DNA of 64,000 nt from the NCBI RefSeq assembly GCF_054482525.1, contig NZ_CM137006.1. One strand, written 5' to 3'. Positions 3,896 through 40,328 of the stretch are shown piece after piece (positions within the stretch are counted from its first letter, which is position 1; every line of letters begins with the position of its first letter). The translations under genes were made by a program, and so were the position numbers. The notes below the pieces were generated by a model, which saw nothing but the letters and a program-made list of their open reading frames with translations, did not search any database and was not told the DNA's origin.

Positions 3896-4588
3896 GCTGT
3901 TCTTATTATTCCCTGGGGACTACGGGCACAGAGGTTAACTTTCTGTTACCTGGAGACGTCGGGATTTCCTTCCTCCGGTCTGCTTGCGGGTCAGACAGCG
4001 TCCTTTCTATAACTGCGCGTCATGCAAAACACTGCTTCCAGATGCGAAAACGACACGTTACAACGCTGGGTGGCTCGGGATTGCAGGGTGTTCCGGAGAC
4101 CTGGCGGCAGTATAGGCCGTTCACAAAATCATTACAATTAACCTACATATAGTTTGTCGGGTTTTATCCTGAACAGTGATCCAGGTCACGATAACAACAT
4201 TTATTTAATTTTTAATCATCTAATTTGACAATCATTCAACAAAGTTGTTACAAACATTACCAGGAAAAGCATATAATGCGTAAAAGTTATGAAGTCGGTA
4301 TTTCACCTAAGATTAACTTATGTAACAGTGTGGAAGTATTGACCAATTCATTCGGGACAGTTATTAGTGGTAGACAAGTTTAATAATTCGGATTGCTAAG
4401 TACTTGATTCGCCATTTATTCGTCATCAATGGATCCTTTACCTGCAAGCGCCCAGAGCTCTGTACCCAGGTTTTCCCCTCTTTCGCAGAGCGGCGAGCCA
4501 AATAACAAACGGGTAAAGCCAGGTTGATGTGCGAAGGCAAATTTAAGTTCCGGCAGTCTTACGCAATAAGGCGCTAAGGAGACCTTAA
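3896..4588. promoter_or_regulatory. Divergent gltA / sdhCDAB promoter and control region
   Basis: AT-rich ~690-bp non-coding interval between divergent start codons; this is a well-studied control region in E. coli, but no individual binding sites were mapped here. Confidence 0.6.
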
Positions 4589-5872
4589 ATGGCTGATACA
4601 AAAGCAAAACTCACCCTCAACGGGGATACAGCTGTTGAACTGGATGTGCTGAAAGGCACGCTGGGTCAAGATGTTATTGATATCCGTACTCTCGGTTCAA
4701 AAGGTGTATTCACCTTTGACCCAGGCTTCACTTCAACCGCATCCTGCGAATCTAAAATTACTTTTATTGATGGTGATGAAGGTATTTTGCTGCACCGCGG
4801 TTTCCCGATCGATCAGCTGGCGACCGATTCTAACTACCTGGAAGTTTGTTACATCCTGCTGAATGGTGAAAAACCGACTCAGGAACAGTATGACGAATTT
4901 AAAACTACGGTGACCCGTCATACCATGATCCACGAGCAGATTACCCGTCTGTTCCATGCTTTCCGTCGCGACTCGCATCCAATGGCAGTCATGTGTGGTA
5001 TTACCGGCGCGCTGGCGGCGTTCTATCACGACTCGCTGGATGTTAACAATCCTCGTCATCGTGAAATTGCCGCGTTCCGCCTGCTGTCGAAAATGCCGAC
5101 CATGGCCGCGATGTGTTACAAGTATTCCATTGGTCAGCCATTTGTTTACCCGCGCAACGATCTCTCCTATGCCGGTAACTTCCTGAATATGATGTTCTCC
5201 ACGCCGTGCGAACCGTATGAAGTTAATCCGATTCTGGAACGTGCTATGGACCGTATTTTGATCCTGCACGCTGACCATGAACAGAACGCCTCTACCTCCA
5301 CCGTGCGTACCGCTGGCTCTTCGGGGGCGAACCCGTTTGCCTGTATCGCAGCAGGTATTGCTTCACTGTGGGGACCTGCGCACGGTGGTGCTAACGAAGC
5401 GGCGCTGAAAATGCTGGAAGAAATCAGCTCCGTTAAACACATTCCGGAATTTGTTCGTCGTGCGAAAGATAAAAATGATTCTTTCCGCCTGATGGGCTTC
5501 GGGCACCGCGTGTACAAAAATTACGACCCGCGCGCCACCGTAATGCGTGAAACCTGCCATGAAGTGCTGAAAGAGCTGGGTACCAAAGATGACCTGCTGG
5601 AAGTGGCTATGGAGCTGGAAAACATCGCGCTGAACGACCCGTACTTTATCGAGAAGAAACTCTACCCGAACGTCGATTTCTACTCTGGTATCATCCTGAA
5701 AGCGATGGGTATTCCGTCTTCTATGTTCACCGTGATCTTCGCTATGGCACGTACCGTTGGCTGGATCGCCCACTGGAGCGAAATGCACAGTGACGGTATG
5801 AAGATTGCCCGTCCGCGTCAACTGTATACAGGATATGAAAAACGCGACTTTAAAAGCGATATCAAGCGTTAA
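4589..5872 (+). CDS. gltA: Citrate synthase
   Basis: 427-aa ORF starting [36 protein letters not shown]. Confidence 0.95.
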
Positions 5873-5902
5873 TGGTTGATTGCTAAGCCGTTTACTTTCC
5901 GG

Positions 5903-5932
5903 ACCCGCCTTTAATAGAGCGGGTTCTTTTTT
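5903..5932 (+). terminator. Rho-independent terminator after gltA
   Basis: GC stem acccgc...gcgggt followed by a T-run. Confidence 0.6.
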
Positions 5933-6261
5933 ATATGGCTGAACATAATAAATTGTAAAAATTAAACCAGATGCAAATACCCATTAATAAGGTGAAAAAA
6001 TGTGACAAGTCACATACTGAGCAGAATGATAAGTTTATTTTTATACTTTCCTGCCGGTAGCATTGTTAACCCAATGAAAATTATGCATATCCATCCCACC
6101 CCATCTTTCATCTCATTAAACAATAAATTTATACACTCAATTATTCCATTCTTTATATAACAAGATTTTTAATATTGTTAAATAAAACCAAATACATTCA
6201 ACTGTCAGTTAATATATTCTTGCCTCGCAACACTCTATCTCATTATTTAAAGGACTCAGCT

Positions 6262-6828
6262 ATGTTTAAAGGACAAAAAACATTGGCCGCACTGGCCATA
6301 TCTCTGCTATTCACAGCACCTGTTTATGCGGCTGATGAAGGATCCGGTGAAATTCACTTTAAAGGTGAAGTTATTGAAGCACCGTGTGAAATACATCAGG
6401 ATGATATTGATAAAGAGGTTGAACTCGGTCAGGTGACCACCAGCCATATTAATCAGTCGCATCACAGCGATGCCGTTGCTGTCGACCTGCGCTTAGTCAA
6501 CTGCGATCTGGAAAACTCCAACAACGGTTCCGGCGGCAAGATTTCTAAAGTTGCAGTCACCTTTGAAAGCTCAGCGAAAACCACCGGCGCAGATCCGATT
6601 CTCAACAACACCAGCACGGGTGAAGCCACCGGCGTCGGCGTGCGTTTAATGAATAAAGATCAAAGCAATATCGTTTTAGGCACCGCTACTCCAGATATCG
6701 ACCTGGCTCCGACCTCCAGCGAACAAACGTTAAATTTCTTTGCGTGGATGGAACAAATTGATCAGGCTACACCTGTAACGCCAGGCGCAGTTACGGCGAA
6801 TGCGACCTACGTGCTGGATTATAAATAA
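6262..6828 (+). CDS. ybgD: Fimbrial major subunit (chaperone-usher family)
   Basis: 188 aa from MFKGQKTLAALAISLLFTAPVYA (signal peptide); C-terminal fimbrial subunit strand; AT-rich upstream region. Confidence 0.85.
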   Translation: MFKGQKTLAALAISLLFTAPVYAADEGSGEIHFKGEVIEAPCEIHQDDIDKEVELGQVTTSHINQSHHSDAVAVDLRLVNCDLENSNNGSGGKISKVAVTFESSAKTTGADPILNNTSTGEATGVGVRLMNKDQSNIVLGTATPDIDLAPTSSEQTLNFFAWMEQIDQATPVTPGAVTANATYVLDYK

Positions 6829-6878
6829 GTATCACTTTGGCGGCGTCATCGCCGCCTTTCTTCAAATATTTATCAGGT

Positions 6879-9338
6879 ATGGACACCGTGAATATTTATC
6901 GACTCTCTTTTATATCCTGCCTGGTCATGGCGATGCCTTCCGCATTGGCGGTCGAATTCAATCTGAATGTTCTCGATAAATCAATGCGCGACCGCATTGA
7001 TATTTCATTATTAAAGGAAAAAGGAGTCATTGCTCCCGGTGAATATTTTGTTAGCGTTGCGGTGAATAACAACCAAATCAGTAATGGGCAAAAAATCAAC
7101 TGGCAAAAAAAGGGTGACAAAACCATTCCATGCATCAATGATTCACTGGTCGATAAATTTGGTTTAAAACCAGATATCCGTCAGTCCTTGCCACAGATAG
7201 ATCGGTGTATTGATTTCAGTTCCCGACCTGAAATGCTCTTCAATTTCGATCAAGCCAATCAGCAACTGAATATTAGTATTCCGCAAGCCTGGCTGGCGTG
7301 GCACTCAGAAAACTGGGCTCCCCCCTCTACATGGAAAGAAGGTGTTGCCGGTGTCCTGATGGATTACAACTTGTTTGCCAGCAGCTACCGCCCACAGGAC
7401 GGCAGCAGCAGCACTAATCTGAATGCCTACGGTACCGCCGGAATTAACGCCGGGGCATGGCGCTTACGCAGTGATTACCAGCTTAATAAGACCGATAGCG
7501 AAGATAACCATGACCAGTCAGGCGGAATATCGCGCACCTATCTTTTTCGTCCATTACCGCAATTAGGCTCTAAGTTAACCCTCGGCGAAACCGATTTCAG
7601 TTCCAATATTTTCGACGGCTTTTCTTATACCGGCGCGGCACTGGCAAGTGACGATCGGATGTTACCGTGGGAGCTACGCGGCTACGCCCCACAAATCAGC
7701 GGCATTGCACAAACCAACGCCACCGTCACCGTGAGTCACTCAGGGCGAGTTATTTACCAGAAAAAAGTCCCACCAGGTCCGTTTATCATTGATGACCTTA
7801 ATCAGTCCGTCCAGGGTACGTTGGATGTCAAAGTGACGGAAGAAGATGGTCGGGTGAACAATTTCCAGGTTTCGGCAGCATCGACGCCCTTCCTGACTCG
7901 CCAGGGACAGGTTCGCTATAAATTGGCCGCGGGTCAGCCACGGCCCTCCATGTCACATCAAACTGAAAATGAAACCTTTTTTAGCAATGAAGTTTCCTGG
8001 GGGATGCTGTCAAATACCTCGCTGTACGGCGGCCTGCTGATTTCGGGTGACGACTACCATTCTGCCGCAATGGGTATCGGGCAAAATATGCTCTGGCTTG
8101 GTGCATTGTCGTTTGATGTCACCTGGGCCAGTAGTCAGTTTGATACTCAGCAGGACGAGCGGGGCTTAAGTTACCGCTTTAATTACAGCAAACAAGTGGA
8201 TGCCACTAACAGCACGATTTCGCTCGCCGCTTATCGCTTTTCAGATCGTCATTTTCACAGCTACGCCAACTATCTGGATCACAAATACAACGACAACGAT
8301 GCGCAGGACGAAAAACAGACGATCAGCTTATCCGTGGGGCAACCGATTACCCCACTGAACCTCAATCTGTACGCCAACCTGCTGCATCAAACCTGGTGGA
8401 ATGCAGACGCCTCCACGACCGCCAACATCACGGCGGGTTTTAATGTTGATATTGGTAACTGGAGAGATATCTCGATCTCGACGTCATTCAATACAACCCA
8501 TTACGAAGATAAAGATCGCGACAATCAGATTTACCTGTCGATTTCGCTTCCCTTCGGTAACGGGGGGCGGGTCGGTTATGACATGCAAAACAGTAGTCAA
8601 AGCACCACGCACCGCATGTCGTGGAATGATACGTTGGATGAACGTAATAGCTGGGGCATGTCTACCGGACTGCAATCCGACCGTCCGGATAATGGAGCCC
8701 AGGTGAGCGGTAACTATCAGCACCTGAGTTCAGCGGGTGAGTGGGATATTTCTGGTACCTATGCCGCCAATGATTACAGTTCCGTCAGCAGCAGCTGGAG
8801 CGGTTCTTTCACGGCAACTCAATATGGTGCGGCGTTCCATCGTCGCAGCTCCACCAATGAACCACGTCTGATGGTCAGTACCGATGGCGTGGCAGATATT
8901 CCGGTTCAGGGCAATCTCGACTACACCAACCATTTTGGCATTGCGGTGGTGCCGTTGATTTCCAGTTATCAGCCTTCCACCGTGGCGGTGAACATGAATG
9001 ATTTACCCGACGGCGTAACAGTGGCAGATAACGTTATCAAAGAAACGTGGATTGAAGGCGCGATAGGTTACAAATCGCTGGCTTCCCGTTCCGGTAAAGA
9101 CGTTAACGTCATCATTCGCAACGCCAGCGGTCAGTTCCCTCCCCTCGGTGCGGATATCCGCCAGGATGATAGCGGCATTAGCGTGGGGATGGTTGGCGAG
9201 GAAGGACATGCCTGGTTAAGTGGAGTCGCTGAAAATCAACAATTTACCGTGGTCTGGGGTAATAGCCAGCGTTGCTCGATCCATCTTCCTGAACATATGG
9301 AAGACACCGCAAATCGCCTGATTTTACCTTGTCATTAA
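6879..9338 (+). CDS. ybgQ: Fimbrial outer-membrane usher
   Basis: ~820-aa ORF of usher size with a signal peptide (start choice among nearby codons uncertain); sits between the subunit and chaperone genes. Confidence 0.8.
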   Translation: MDTVNIYRLSFISCLVMAMPSALAVEFNLNVLDKSMRDRIDISLLKEKGVIAPGEYFVSVAVNNNQISNGQKINWQKKGDKTIPCINDSLVDKFGLKPDIRQSLPQIDRCIDFSSRPEMLFNFDQANQQLNISIPQAWLAWHSENWAPPSTWKEGVAGVLMDYNLFASSYRPQDGSSSTNLNAYGTAGINAGAWRLRSDYQLNKTDSEDNHDQSGGISRTYLFRPLPQLGSKLTLGETDFSSNIFDGFSYTGAALASDDRMLPWELRGYAPQISGIAQTNATVTVSHSGRVIYQKKVPPGPFIIDDLNQSVQGTLDVKVTEEDGRVNNFQVSAASTPFLTRQGQVRYKLAAGQPRPSMSHQTENETFFSNEVSWGMLSNTSLYGGLLISGDDYHSAAMGIGQNMLWLGALSFDVTWASSQFDTQQDERGLSYRFNYSKQVDATNSTISLAAYRFSDRHFHSYANYLDHKYNDNDAQDEKQTISLSVGQPITPLNLNLYANLLHQTWWNADASTTANITAGFNVDIGNWRDISISTSFNTTHYEDKDRDNQIYLSISLPFGNGGRVGYDMQNSSQSTTHRMSWNDTLDERNSWGMSTGLQSDRPDNGAQVSGNYQHLSSAGEWDISGTYAANDYSSVSSSWSGSFTATQYGAAFHRRSSTNEPRLMVSTDGVADIPVQGNLDYTNHFGIAVVPLISSYQPSTVAVNMNDLPDGVTVADNVIKETWIEGAIGYKSLASRSGKDVNVIIRNASGQFPPLGADIRQDDSGISVGMVGEEGHAWLSGVAENQQFTVVWGNSQRCSIHLPEHMEDTANRLILPCH

Positions 9339-9353
9339 TTAAGGAAATGAAAA

Positions 9354-10085
9354 ATGACATTTATGAAAGGACTTCCCCTTTTGTTGTTGATTGCCAGTCT
9401 GTGCAGCTACGCTGCGCTACAACCCGATCGCACTCGCATTGTGTTTAACGCTAATGATAAAGCCACCAGCCTGCGAGTGGATAATCGTAGCGATAAACTC
9501 CCCTACCTCGCTTATTCCTGGCTCGAAAATGAAAAAGGGGAGAAAAGCGACGATCTTCTGGTCGCCCTGCCACCGATACAACGTCTGGAACCGAAAGCAA
9601 CAACGCAGGTGCGGATAGTCAAGCAAGCCTCGACCGCGAAATTACCTGGCGATCGCGAAACGCTATTTTTCTACAATATGCGTGAAATTCCTCCCTCCCC
9701 AGAAAAAAACAGCGGCCATGCCGTTCTGCAGGTCGCCATCCAGAGTCGTATCAAGGTGTTCTGGAGACCGTCCGCGTTACGCAAGAAAGCAGGAGAAAAA
9801 GTCGAGCTACAGTTACAAGTCAGCCAGCAGGGCAATCAACTTAACTTAAAAAACCCGACCGGCTATTACCTGACAATCGCCTACCTCGGACGAAATGAGC
9901 AAGCTGTTCTCCCGGGCTTCAAAACCGTGATGGTTGCGCCTTTTAGTACAGTAATTACAAACACCGGAAGTTATAGCGGCAGTCAGTTTTATCTCGGTTA
10001 TATGGATGATTACGGCGCGTTACGCATGACGACGCTCAATTGCAACGGACATTGCCGTTTACAAGCAGTGGAGGCGAAGAAATGA
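9354..10085 (+). CDS. ybgP: Fimbrial periplasmic chaperone
   Basis: 243 aa with a signal peptide, PapD-like size and position. Confidence 0.8.
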
Positions 10086-11143
10086 GTACTGGCAAAGGAT
10101 TGTTGCTCGTCATCTGTCTGTTATTTCTGCCATTGAAGTCTGCGCTAGCGCTGAACTGCTATTTTGGTACTTCCGGCGGAACGGTAGAAAAATCGGAAGC
10201 GATTCAACCCTTTGCTGTGCCAGGTAATGCCAAACCCGGCGATAAGATCTGGGAATCTGACGATATTAAAATTCCCGTCTATTGTGACAACAATACCAAC
10301 GGCAACTTTGAAAGCGAACATGTCTACGCATGGGTAAACCCCTACCCGGGGGTACAGGATCGTTATTATCAACTCGGCGTGACATACAATGGTGTCGATT
10401 ACGATGCCAGTCTGGGGAAAAGCCGCATCGACACCAACCAGTGTATCGACAGTAAGAACATTAACATTTATACCCCTGAGCAGATTATCGCGATGGGCTG
10501 GCAGAACAAAATATGTTCGGGTGACCCCGCTAATATTCACATGTCGCGAACCTTTCTCGCTCGTATGCGGTTATACGTTAAGATTCGCGAAATGCCGCCG
10601 CATGATTATCAAAGTACGCTTAGCGACTACATCGTCGTGCAATTTGATGGTGCCGGTAGCGTTAACGAAGACCCTACCGCCCAAAACCTGAAATACCATA
10701 TTACTGGTCTGGAAAACATTCGTGTACTGGATTGCAGCGTCAATTTTTCTATTTCACCAGAAACACAGGTGATTGATTTTGGTAAATTTAACCTGCTGGA
10801 TATTCGCCGCCACACAATGTCGAAAACATTCAGTATTAAGACGACAAAATCACAAAATGACCAGTGCACCGACGGATTTAAGGTCAGCTCTTCGTTTTAT
10901 ACCGAAGAAACATTGATTGAAGAGGATAAAGCACTGCTGATTGGTAATGGACTGAAGCTACGTTTGCTGGATGAAAATTCTTCACCCTATACTTTCAACA
11001 AATACAGCGAATATGCTGATTTCACCAGCGATATGTTGATCTACGAAAAAACCTATACGGCTGAACTTTCGTCCATTCCCGGCACCCCCATCGAAGCGGG
11101 TCCCTTCGATACAGTGGTGCTTTTTAAGATTAACTATAACTAA
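10082..11143 (+). CDS. ybgO: Putative fimbrial adhesin / minor subunit
   Basis: 353 aa from [23 protein letters not shown]; start overlaps the ybgP stop (ATGA). Confidence 0.75.
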
Positions 11144-11295
11144 TTTATCATGATGCCCTTTGCAGTCAGTAAAGGGCCTCTCTTTCAGAAAATTGCTGAT
11201 TTTCCCCTTTTCCTTGATTGCTGTTATTTTTTCCTGGCCCGGCTTTCTTTATGCTGTATCGATACACCAAAGAAAAAATAATGAGGGAGCGAAGG

Positions 11296-38922: not shown

Positions 38923-40328
38923 TCAGAAGATGGTGAATGGTGCGATTACCATAAATTTCACGTCGCGCTCATCCTGGAAGATGTTACCGTAACCGCCGCC
39001 CCAGCTTGGGATGTCGGAGTGGTTGTCGTATTCGGTGAAGTGCAGTTTGAACATCGTGCCTTTAGCGCGACCGTCCTGAATGGTGTAGACCGCATCCAGG
39101 CTGTATGCAGACTCTTCAATAGTCCGGTTCTTGTCGTAGTACGCATCCGGGTTGCTCTGCCAGGTAGCGGGTTTAGCATCCCATGCGTAAACGTAGGAAG
39201 CGCCGATGGCGAAGCCTGGAAGATTCCAGTTTTTCAGATCATACATCGCGCCGAAGAAAACCGCTTTTTCGCCGTTGGCGTTAAAGTCAGAACGGTTATC
39301 CCACCAGATATCCAGGCGGCCGTTCGAGGAAGCGTAGGTTGGGGTCATACGTTGCAGGAAGTATCCCTGCTGACCGTCGGCTTTAACCCAGGTGCCTTCC
39401 AGACGCAAATCCACTACGTCAGCCGCCCGGTAACCAAAGGTCAACGCTTGCAGCCAGGCGGTGCCGTCATAAAGATCGTTGACGCTGCGATCGTCAACTT
39501 TATCGCGCGTACCGTAGAACTGGTAGCTGGTGGTTAACGGGCTACCGGCGATATCAAATTTGTAGCTGGCTTTGGCAAAATATTGATCGATATACCCTTC
39601 TGCCTGACCAAATGCCGCTTCCAGTACAAAGTTATTTTTGAAGTCGTACTTCGCACCAATAGAATGCAGATAATCAACTTTGGTGGTTTTATCGTCTGAT
39701 AAAACTCATCCATTTCCAGATGCCACGGTGCTTTGTATTCGTTGGTCCACATGTAGGAGAAACTCAACGCACCAGCTTCGCCGTAATCAAAATTCGCCCC
39801 GGCTTCCGCACCCTGATAAGTACCCGGCATAAAACTCCAGTGCGGCGCTAACAGCGTCTGACCGGTTGGCTGAATATAACCTGCCCTCGCCCACACCGGG
39901 CCGTATTTAAATTTGGCCGCTGCTTTATACAGGCTTATACCGCTTTTATCGCCGGACCAGTCTTCGTCATAGGCTTTATTGCTTTTTGAAAACGCGATTT
40001 CGTTCGGGTGAGAGCTGTCACCGTTTTCCGCCATTTCAATCGCCGTAAACGCAGCAATATCAAGGCCGAACATATCAGCAGCATAACCGGACTGAAAATC
40101 GAGGTTGGCATTCCAGGTGGAGTGAGAAAGGTTGGTTTTGTATTTGTCGCCGTCGGTAACATCTTTACGGTCGCGTTCACGCTGCCAGTAATAGATACCG
40201 CCGGTTAAGGTTGAATCGTCGATGAATCCTTCGGCGCGAGCCTCCGGCATTGCCATAAAGCCCGACATTGCTGTAACACCGGCGATAGCCAGCGCCAGCG
40301 TACTACGTTTGCCACTAAACGTACGCAT
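38923..40328 (-). pseudogene. chiP: Chitoporin ChiP (outer-membrane porin), reading frame broken by an apparent 1-bp deletion
   Basis: Track ORFs 39534..40328 (264 aa) and 38923..39444 (173 aa) are the N- and C-terminal parts of one porin; the upstream frame diverges after ...HLEMDEFYQ into nonsense and stops, while shifting by one base at ~39694-39697 restores [22 protein letters not shown]... continuous with the C-terminal ORF. Confidence 0.8.

Follow-up and report, generated by a model that had tools for sequence, protein, structure and literature searches.

Sequence analysis of the ybgDQPO locus of Escherichia coli: an intact four-gene chaperone-usher fimbrial operon behind an AT-rich spacer

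Gene content and class of the operon

We identified a chaperone-usher locus in the 64-kb stretch of DNA analysed here (the window) which very probably represents the E. coli operon for Ybg fimbriae, a Pap-like system of the pi class, in its intact four-gene form, and which would work as proposed in the last section. The region (positions 5873-11143) consists of a spacer followed by ybgD, ybgQ, ybgP and ybgO, all intact and on the plus strand. It directly follows gltA, which ends at position 5872, and occupies the slot between gltA and abrB with the same synteny as in K-12. The four open reading frames, whose boundaries are those annotated in RefSeq, encode the predicted major pilin (ybgD, 6262-6828, 188 aa), the outer-membrane usher (ybgQ, 6879-9338, 819 aa), a periplasmic PapD-like chaperone (ybgP, 9354-10085, 243 aa) and a two-domain protein predicted to be the tip adhesin (ybgO, 10082-11143, 353 aa), whose start codon overlaps the ybgP stop codon (ATGA). 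Coding GC of the operon is 48%, slightly under the window mean of 52.1%.

The orthologues are of the same or nearly the same length in K-12 (188/818/242/353 aa) and O157 (188/819/243/353 aa), and their alignments cover all four proteins end to end; there is therefore no frameshift and no premature stop. The original prediction, made from the sequence, had claimed a complete ybgDQPO set downstream of gltA with four intact reading frames; Pfam domains, RefSeq boundaries and synteny bear out the first claim, and the alignment to K-12 and O157, which served as the frameshift check, agrees with the second. The Ybg type is defined by locus position and usher (Wurpel et al., 2013), and the operon lies in the gltA/abrB slot and carries the orthologue of K-12 YbgQ (97% identical). 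Approximately 39.7 kb of the window could be compared to E. coli PCN033 at the level of single bases, with an identity of about 99.97%, and identity over the 5.3-kb ybg region is 100.0% when rounded. At residue 795 of YbgQ the window encodes N, as opposed to D in O157 and in the RefSeq record of PCN033 and E in K-12. The genome paper of PCN033 lists the locus as 'pi, Ybg, PCN033_0733-0736, intact' (PMC4578781). Publications thus already cover the operon and its class, the cryptic behavior seen in K-12 and the fact that the genes are intact in PCN033 and, as the operon is already described, the addition to current knowledge is small. New details are the dN/dS values, the mosaic and hypervariable nature of the cassette, the stem-loop after ybgD, the absence of a local switch and the link of YbgO to solved structures.

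The components of a classical chaperone-usher system were all found, namely a three-part usher, a two-domain chaperone with the residues corresponding to Arg8 and Lys112 of PapD, and a pilin of the Fimbrial family. YbgQ contains the PapC_N (9e-35, positions 1-144 of 146), Usher (6.6e-187, 2-548 of 549) and PapC_C (2e-13, 4-62 of 66) domains, and its alignment to full-length PapC (7LHG_C) spans residues 25-818. Against PapC the usher reached 522 bits vs 266-272 bits against FimD, and its best NCBIfam models (StdB, PRK15284, PRK15273) reach 537-640 bits vs 273 bits for FimD-type models. YbgP contains PapD_N (3.6e-34) and PapD_C (1.5e-13) domains and scores 169 bits against PapD vs 97 bits against FimC. 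Its DRTR motif aligns with DRTR of PapD (Arg8), RIKVFWRP aligns with KIKLFYRP of PapD (Lys112), and the alignment also shows the Cys pair at the C-terminus. The best NCBIfam models for YbgP are SteC, StfD and StdC. In the NCBIfam search no equivalog model was reached by any of the four proteins, and YbgO did not match any model. In the gene order ybgD-ybgQ-ybgP-ybgO the usher comes before the chaperone. Such an order is typical of the pi clade. As judged by its scores, YbgQ would accordingly be a pi-clade usher in the classification of Nuccio and Baumler (2007), and the literature puts Ybg in the same clade (PMC4578781, PMC5216030, PMC3559732). HMM classification of usher and chaperone, a check that had been suggested with the original prediction, thus resulted in PapC/PapD and Std/Ste/Stf-like models scoring best. 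Assembly of YbgQ has been measured experimentally (Stubenrauch, 2016, as referred to in a passage of PMC11014939).

YbgD matches Pfam Fimbrial with an E-value of 3.5e-30, and among solved structures FimA and PapA are nearest to it. Inspection of the sequence by eye showed a signal peptide and an N-terminus of alternating hydrophobicity (GEIHFKGEVIEA), and YbgD is accordingly described here as the putative major pilin, made with a signal peptide and bearing a donor-strand extension at its N-terminus. YbgO shows a C-terminal Fimbrial match below threshold in Pfam (24.0 bits vs a cut-off of 25.6). Its AF2 model (pLDDT 88) has two domains, and the protein can be divided into a signal peptide (1-23), a receptor-binding domain (approximately 24-217) and a pilin domain (approximately 218-353). 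This is the organization of a two-domain tip adhesin, with an N-terminal receptor-binding domain and a C-terminal incomplete-Ig pilin domain that has no N-terminal donor strand. Structures of the receptor-binding domain of YbgO itself have been solved (PDB 9RX0 and 9RWW, residues 24-222). Related deposits are 9RWU/9RWV, an E. coli paralogue approximately 37-40% identical, of which the deposited chain was matched at an E-value of 7.8e-99, and 9RWE. These entries are the true structural siblings of YbgO; a literature search for a paper on 9RX0, 9RWW, 9RWU or 9RWE found none. The N-terminal domain also resembles the receptor-binding domains of LpfD (5AFO), Abp1D (8DF0), MrkD (3U4K), GafD (1OIO), UclD (7MZP) and FimH, which share the elongated beta-sandwich lectin-type fold and the C-terminal pilin domain with YbgO, but only 7-15% sequence identity, and ligand specificity is therefore not transferable from these adhesins to YbgO. 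In a literature search no ligand or receptor of YbgO was reported. The structure prediction suggested earlier as a check, the fold of the receptor-binding domain and the entries 9RX0/9RWW all support the claim that YbgO is the likeliest determinant of binding specificity.

The AT-rich spacer and control of transcription

The spacer between gltA and ybgD (5873-6261, plus strand, 389 bp) is presumed, from its composition and the K-12 literature, to hold the promoter and an H-NS silencing region. Its GC content is 31.6% (29.0% after the gltA terminator hairpin) vs a window average of 52.1%, and only 0.75% of all 389-bp windows in the 64 kb are equally AT-rich, in good agreement with the approximately 390 bp of very AT-rich DNA that had been described upstream. 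A/T tracts occur at 18 per kb in the spacer vs 9.3 per kb in the window. Among the three alleles compared, length (386-389 bp) and GC content (29-33%) are kept, but sequence identity is only 43-65%, with K-12 at approximately 65%. A Shine-Dalgarno sequence (AAGGA, 6250-6254, plus strand) lies 7 nt before the ybgD ATG and is kept in all three alleles. Open reading frames of 20-52 aa in the spacer were rejected as genes, being low-complexity translations of AT-rich DNA that are unannotated in the PCN033, K-12 and O157 records. An Rfam scan of 5700-11400 with E-values up to 1 gave no match, and thus no known sRNA or riboswitch in the leader.

A consensus scan found no strong sigma-70 site, as the original prediction had stated: the best matches scored 9/12, their count was 6 vs a shuffle mean of 9.0, and 2 sites lay in the spacer. 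In K-12 the spacer between ybgD and gltA belongs to a set of 78 'promoter islands', with H-NS binding ('A') in all ChIP data sets (PMC3661553); it is also an H-NS-associated sigma-70 SELEX site (PMC3946193). Promoter islands are defined as stretches of 300 bp or more of AT-rich, curved intergenic DNA with at least 8 start points per 100 bp predicted by PlatProm (Panyukov and Ozoline, 2013). With 389 bp, 31.6% GC and A/T tracts at twice the density of the window, the spacer has the composition of such an island; the density of start points, which was approximated by a simple hexamer scan only, showed no excess over shuffled sequences. The K-12 SELEX promoter (TAAACA-16-TAAAAT) was rejected as a promoter in this allele, where it aligns to TGAACA-16-TTAAAC and the -10 hexamer is lost. 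The claim of an H-NS-silenced leader is thus supported by published data for the K-12 allele. As the spacer of the strain analysed here shares only about 65% identity with that of K-12 and does not keep the SELEX -10 hexamer, we infer silencing in this strain from the conservation of AT-richness.

Other candidate elements were found outside the spacer. In the AT-rich 5' end of ybgQ (41% GC in the first 350 nt), a cluster of sites resembling the H-NS high-affinity motif TCGATAAATT was found by motif scan at 6893-7159 (no strand assigned). It contains the sole exact match in the 64 kb (7150-7159) and two sites with one mismatch, and thus three of the ten sites with at most one mismatch. All three sites are present in K-12, which is 96-99% identical there, so that the sharing is not independent, and one is present in O157. 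The cluster is unusual in the window but only partly conserved in O157 and is therefore a hint only; as a candidate downstream silencing element it is speculative.

An alternative is that the operon has no dedicated silencer and is expressed constitutively at a low level, partly by read-through from gltA, a strongly transcribed gene, with host cues inducing it through activators and not through relief from H-NS. Such a mechanism would be consistent with the co-orientation of gltA and ybgD, with the lack of a strong promoter of its own in the consensus scan and with the presence of one moderate hairpin terminator between the two genes. This intrinsic gltA terminator (5901-5932, plus strand) is a stem-loop, GGACCCGCC...GCGGGUUC, followed by six T residues, and the fold of 5880-5935 has a dG of -15.6 kcal/mol (z -2.2). 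The consensus terminator scan missed it, probably because the loop of approximately 10 nt of the perfect stem exceeds the 8-nt limit of the scanner. In addition, ybg transcripts are detectable, and ybg mRNA differs 3- to 5-fold between groups of STEC strains in culture with no significant change in hns (PMC6033998), so that 'silent' is not absolute. Against read-through stand the six-T tail and the stem of the terminator, which the K-12 and O157 alleles share, and the occupation of the K-12 spacer in vivo by both RNA polymerase and H-NS (PMC3661553, PMC3946193). AT-richness is moreover kept across alleles where sequence is not, and a silencer that reads composition therefore fits better than a specific activator site. 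We consider expression without a dedicated silencer to be quite unlikely.

Two further hairpins were found within and after the operon. Between ybgD and ybgQ (6839-6856, plus strand) lies a G+C-rich stem-loop (GGCGGCG-TCAT-CGCCGCC) with a U-rich tail, found by folding and by the terminator scan. Its dG is -16.1 kcal/mol (z -4.7), none of 200 shuffled sequences folded equally well, and the GGCGGC/GCCGCC stem is also present in the K-12 and O157 alleles with a different loop. The U-tail (UUUCUUC) is poor and the efficiency of termination is therefore uncertain. A terminator-like hairpin of 9 pairs after ybgO (11155-11177, plus strand; terminator scan; dG -17.8 kcal/mol, z -2.8), with a weak T-tail, is the probable end of the operon.

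Local switches were also searched for. A Pap-type epigenetic switch was rejected, as 5873-6261 contains no GATC and no papI/papB-like regulator gene lies in or beside the operon. A fim-type invertible promoter was rejected as well, since only imperfect AT-rich inverted matches (75-92% complementary) and no nearby recombinase gene were found.

Allele diversity and selection at the locus

The cassette is a sharply bounded, mosaic and hypervariable locus. Compared to the O157 allele, dS is 1.4-2.2 within the cassette and 0.06-0.19 in the flanking genes, and the edges are sharp at the gltA stop codon and before abrB. The YbgO protein of E. marmotae is 91% identical to this allele and that of E. 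coli O157 88%. YbgD is 78% identical to its K-12 and 72% to its O157 counterpart. A ybgD allele of this type (at least 95% identical) is present in approximately 1,900 of 5,426 genomes and is the commoner type in the species; the K-12 type shows about 73.5% DNA identity to it. Three genomes with at least 99% identity over 5.3 kb had suggested a rare allele, an idea that was rejected when a search with ybgD and the leader showed the common type. Only this particular mosaic is rare, not the ybgD type.

One explanation for such divergence is that the operon arrived recently as a foreign island and is not a core locus of E. coli, and that the AT-rich leader is merely a signature of foreign DNA. 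The contrast in dS with the flanks, the sharp boundaries and the closer match of YbgO to E. marmotae than to O157 are compatible with this, and the locus was scored with predicted foreign genes in the promoter-island paper (PMC3661553). However, coding GC differs only slightly from that of the window, nearly all E. coli carry the operon in this position, it has been called core-associated (PMC3559732), and no integrase, tRNA or repeat boundary flanks the cassette. Recent acquisition as an island therefore seems rather unlikely, and a resident locus whose alleles are replaced through homologous recombination fits better than insertion of an island.

All four genes showed dN/dS values of 0.03-0.12 (approximately 0.11 for ybgD) with dS saturated, and the lectin (receptor-binding) domain of YbgO showed 0.011-0.031. 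The operon is therefore under purifying selection and is maintained, not decaying. The designation of the fimbriae as cryptic stands if read as silenced, as in K-12, but not if read as decaying, and the term should be corrected for ybg in this sense, given the strong purifying selection on the four genes. The opposite view is that the operon is a relic, intact by chance in this strain, unused and heading for loss as in many E. coli lineages. Loss does occur: 664 of the 5,426 complete genomes are without a match and about 610 more have only a partial one. WB61 carries a clean deletion (gltA-abrB gap of 268 bp), only a 3' remnant of ybgO is left in SC477 and ABU 83972, H7 and H35 have IS1 insertions, and ybgO is a pseudogene in S. 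flexneri. Wurpel et al. describe the locus as 'not intact in many strains' (PMC3559732). On the other hand, at least 80% of the locus is kept in 4,152 of the 5,426 genomes, the four full-length reading frames have complete domains, and dN/dS values as low as those found, over a very deep divergence, are unexpected for unused genes. According to passages in two papers the K-12 operon is functional if expressed (PMC6033998, PMC8249706). We consider a relic highly improbable.

A possible, though tentative, reading is that the cassette represents an old recombining polymorphism, in which the antigenic rod subunit is subject to balancing selection over long periods, or to repeated interspecies exchange, around a receptor specificity that is conserved, with silencing residing in base composition and possibly including the intragenic H-NS nucleation cluster in ybgQ. 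We propose this because dS vs O157 is saturated, the E. marmotae adhesin is closer, purifying selection is strong above all on the receptor-binding domain of YbgO, and length and AT content of the leader are kept without its sequence. The hypervariability of the cassette matters for variant calling or GWAS with K-12 as reference, as in the STEC host-association study.

Proposed working and comparison with known fimbriae

In the proposed mechanism, a single ybgDQPO mRNA would start within the 389-bp spacer, past the gltA terminator. Under laboratory conditions its transcription may be kept low by H-NS polymerized over the spacer and possibly also over the AT-rich 5' end of ybgQ, as suggested by the binding known from the literature for K-12. 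The stem-loop between ybgD and ybgQ probably acts as a partial terminator or as an mRNA stabilizer, which would yield rod subunit in excess over usher, chaperone and adhesin, and translation of ybgP and ybgO is coupled, as the ATGA overlap in the sequence shows. The four products are all predicted to carry signal peptides. YbgP would cap the subunits by means of its PapD-like Arg and Lys residues, and YbgQ would be the outer-membrane assembly pore. Following the established chaperone-usher mechanism, YbgO would enter first and sit at the tip, because it has two domains and lacks a donor strand, after which YbgD would polymerize by donor-strand exchange. The N-terminal domain of YbgO would bind a receptor. 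The operon encodes no adaptor subunits, terminator subunit, local regulator or phase switch; without the latter two, control must come from global factors. The K-12 operon, when expressed, promotes adhesion (Korea et al., 2010, as cited in passages of PMC8249706 and PMC6033998), and assembly of a surface fiber is suggested by analogy with this allele, for which the same study, as cited in these papers, is the source.

The Ybg fimbriae of K-12 (Korea et al., 2010; Wurpel et al., 2013) share with the operon described here the slot, the four genes, their order and lengths and the length of the spacer. Usher (97%) and adhesin (98%) are nearly identical, whereas the major pilin is only 78% and the chaperone 87% identical, spacer identity is about 65%, and the -10 hexamer of the K-12 SELEX promoter is absent from this allele.

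Salmonella Std, Ste and Stf are pi-class operons. They are the source of the best NCBIfam usher and chaperone models for YbgQ and YbgP, but the scores lie far under the equivalog cut-offs (e.g., 640 vs 1289 bits), and these fimbriae are therefore relatives of Ybg and not orthologues.

P pili (pap) differ from Ybg in having the PapI/PapB regulators and a GATC pair for Dam/Lrp phase variation, as well as the adaptor subunits PapK/E/F and the terminator subunit PapH, none of which are present in Ybg. PapC and PapD are nevertheless the best solved relatives of YbgQ and YbgP (522 and 169 bits; Arg8, Lys112 and the C-terminal disulfide motif), and both systems have the usher gene before the chaperone gene and a two-domain tip adhesin.

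The ybg cassette and its allelic variation

The Ybg locus of the window is an ordinary, already known locus. Over all 5,271 bases, 5873-11143 is 100.0% identical (rounded) to the chromosome of the porcine ExPEC E. coli strain PCN033 (NZ_CP006632.1), and a genome search identified a related locus in 4,762 of 5,426 complete E. coli genomes. In the RefSeq annotation, gltA (4589-5872) is followed by a gene for a "fimbrial protein" (ybgD, 6262-6828), the usher gene ybgQ (6879-9338), a fimbrial chaperone gene (ybgP, 9354-10085), ybgO (10082-11143), which overlaps ybgP by ATGA, and abrB (11296-12342). The original prediction of a fimbrial operon behind AT-rich DNA was correct in every coordinate, as judged by this annotation, GC measurement and a promoter scan. 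Its claim of four intact reading frames was borne out as well: no frameshifts were found when the four proteins were aligned to their K-12 and O157 orthologues, since the lengths match within one residue and the alignments run end to end.

The window and the RefSeq record of PCN033 are not byte-identical. Twelve single-base differences lie within the first 39.7 kb (9261, 11507, 15462, 20214, 21248-21288, 23329, 24614, 25309); an indel near 39696 shifts the register from there on. Two of the single-base differences, YbgQ D795N and AbrB G71V, are located in or beside the operon; YbgQ residue 795, N in the window, is an acidic one in both K-12 (E) and O157 (D). A 35-aa 'hypothetical protein' annotated by RefSeq at 4276-4383 (WP_001305582.1) is identical in PCN033, K-12 and O157 and sits within the AT-rich sdhC-gltA divergent regulatory region (30-34% GC around 4100-4400).

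Three-way alignment of the window, E. coli K-12 and E. coli O157 showed 97-100% identity in sdhCD, gltA, nei and the genes beyond nei, about 90-97.5% in abrB, and an abrupt drop between the gltA stop and about 11232. Compared with O157, gltA is largely 98-100% identical, falling to 90% in the final 200 bp; identity is then 43-83% inside the cassette and about 95% in abrB. The cassette (5873-11232) is thus a sharply bounded hypervariable segment. It is also a mosaic: ybgQ shares 96-99% identity with K-12 throughout its first half, and the adjoining ybgD 66-83%. Protein identities to K-12 and O157 are 78% and 72% for YbgD, 97% and 83% for YbgQ, 87% and 78% for YbgP, and 98% and 87.5% for YbgO, respectively. 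Synonymous divergence of the ybg genes (Nei-Gojobori estimates, as for dN/dS, in the three pairwise comparisons) is 1.4-2.2 versus O157, which is saturated, and 0.19-1.43 versus K-12, compared to 0.06-0.19 for gltA and abrB. YbgO of E. marmotae (91%) is nearer to the window allele than the O157 type (88%). For ybgD plus leader, the window carries the common type, which about 1,900 genomes, BL21 among them, share at 95% identity or more; the K-12 type is a minority. Deep, recombining allelic variation is usual for fimbrial loci. In line with this allelic pattern, a recent STEC study (PMC12547504) found a high density of variants in ybgP and ybgQ.

Selection and loss of the operon

Loss of ybg is frequent across E. 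coli, which would fit the window's allele being a relic. WB61 (L005) carries a clean deletion with a gltA-abrB junction of 268 bp, SC477 (L004) and ABU 83972 retain a remnant of the ybgO 3' end, two genomes found in the search (H7, H35) have IS1 insertions inside the cassette, and ybgO is a pseudogene in Shigella. This decay elsewhere in the species is recurrent and independent. For the allele in the window, however, each of the three pairwise comparisons gives a dN/dS of 0.03-0.12 for every one of the four genes, and the receptor-binding domain of YbgO has 0.011-0.031. Moreover, the expressed K-12 operon is described as promoting attachment to abiotic as well as epithelial surfaces (Korea et al. 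2010, as cited in PMC8249706 and PMC6033998), and YbgQ assembly is reported to need TAM (PMC11014939). The low dN/dS together with this literature makes a relic unlikely. The fimbriae had been predicted to be cryptic; judged by the substitution pattern, "cryptic" does not mean unselected.

The AT-rich spacer and candidate regulatory elements

The spacer 5873-6261 had been described as ~390 bp of AT-rich DNA with no strong promoter. It measures 389 bp at 31.6% GC (29.0% without the gltA terminator; window average 52.1%), 0.75% of equal-sized windows in the 64 kb are as AT-rich, and a consensus scan found no strong sigma-70 promoter in it. The only other stretch in the window as AT-rich (GC at most 34%) is 19861-20650, which takes in the very 3' end of an RHS element core gene, a 124-aa hypothetical protein that overlaps the RHS end and may be an immunity protein, and the spacer before ybgA. 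The gltA terminator, a hairpin with a six-T tail (dG -15.6), follows the gltA stop at 5901-5932. The remaining spacer contains no Rfam matches, credible ORF, GATC sites or convincing inverted repeats, and no regulator or recombinase gene is annotated as flanking the operon. A Pap-type phase switch is therefore excluded by the lack of GATC and of a flanking regulator gene, and a fim-type switch by the lack of convincing inverted repeats and of a recombinase gene.

The K-12 ybgD/gltA spacer (751980, 413 bp) is one of 78 "promoter islands" and was scored as H-NS-bound in all ChIP studies (PMC3661553). It carries a sigma-70 SELEX site, TAAACA-16-TAAAAT, tagged HNS (PMC3946193), which we located at 2881-2908 of the K-12 locus (L002). 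This promoter is not carried over to the window, where it aligns to TGAACA-16-TTAAAC with a spoiled -10 hexamer. The spacers of the three alleles are 386-389 bp long with 29-33% GC, yet only 43-65% identical. Conservation of composition without sequence would fit a silencer that responds to the shape and composition of the DNA. Cryptic chaperone-usher operons in commensal E. coli are H-NS-repressed (PMC3559732). The predicted H-NS silencing is documented for K-12 and is inferred for the window's strain.

The sole exact match in the 64 kb to the H-NS high-affinity motif TCGATAAATT lies at 7150-7159, where the 5' end of ybgQ is AT-rich. Three of the ten 64-kb sites with at most one mismatch (one exact, two with one mismatch) cluster at 6893-7159, within the opening 280 nt of the gene; a Poisson estimate that takes no account of local AT-richness predicts about 0.003 clusters of this kind. 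The cluster hints at a candidate downstream silencing element. All three sites are conserved in the near-identical K-12 segment but only one in O157.

Between ybgD and ybgQ, a stem-loop (GGCGGCG-TCAT-CGCCGCC, 6839-6856; -16.1 kcal/mol, z -4.7) keeps its stem in both divergent alleles, with a different loop. Intercistronic hairpins in other fimbrial operons increase the amount of rod subunit relative to usher, and by this likeness the stem-loop probably does the same. Terminator scan and RNA folding placed another hairpin 3' of ybgO (11155-11177). An exact 10-nt direct repeat, TTTAAAGGAC, lies on either side of the ybgD start codon (6246-6255 and 6265-6274), so that a Shine-Dalgarno-like AAGGA recurs directly after the ATG. 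Over the first ~28 nt of ybgD the three alleles show a single difference, in O157, within DNA that is otherwise 43-77% identical.

The YbgO adhesin and the chaperone-usher clade

YbgO was modelled with AlphaFold2 (52 homologues; pLDDT 88.4) as a signal peptide followed by two beta-rich domains, the architecture of a two-domain tip adhesin. In Foldseek searches, whole YbgO groups with the two-domain tip adhesins LpfD, FimH, CupB6, CsuE and CfaE, and its C-terminal domain with the pilins PapA and FimA. The comparison values for YbgO are 8.0 for LpfD, 7.8 for Abp1D, 7.3 for MrkD, 7.1 for GafD and UclD, 6.8 for FimH and 5.2 for PapG. The Foldseek library ends at 2026-04-08 and is without 9RX0, 9RWW, 9RWU/9RWV and 9RWE, which were matched by sequence instead. 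In the PDB sequence search, 9RX0 and 9RWW cover YbgO residues 24-222 (10151-10747; E about 1e-130), so the receptor-binding domain has been solved already; related domains are those of 9RWE and of 9RWU/9RWV, the latter from a P0106-like E. coli paralogue with about 37-40% sequence identity. A literature search found no papers mentioning these entries. Model, Foldseek and PDB matches together make the predicted role of YbgO as the adhesin well supported.

YbgD matches the full Pfam Fimbrial domain, YbgQ PapC_N, Usher and PapC_C, and YbgP PapD_N and PapD_C; the sole Pfam match of YbgO is a sub-threshold C-terminal Fimbrial. The top NCBIfam models are StdB, PRK15284 and PRK15273 for YbgQ and SteC, StfD and StdC for YbgP, all with scores far under the equivalog cut-offs. 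Aligned to PapD, YbgP has the C-terminal pair of cysteines as well as the motifs DRTR and RIKVFWRP, the counterparts of Arg8 and Lys112, which anchor the subunits. Ybg has been placed in the pi clade (PMC4578781; PMC5216030), and the PapC/PapD-like scores, the Std/Ste/Stf-type matches and the order of usher gene before chaperone gene agree with this placement. Against solved structures, YbgQ scores 522 bits with PapC and 266-272 bits with FimD, and YbgP 169 bits with PapD and 97 bits with FimC, so that by score the usher is much nearer to PapC than to FimD, and the chaperone nearer to PapD than to FimC.
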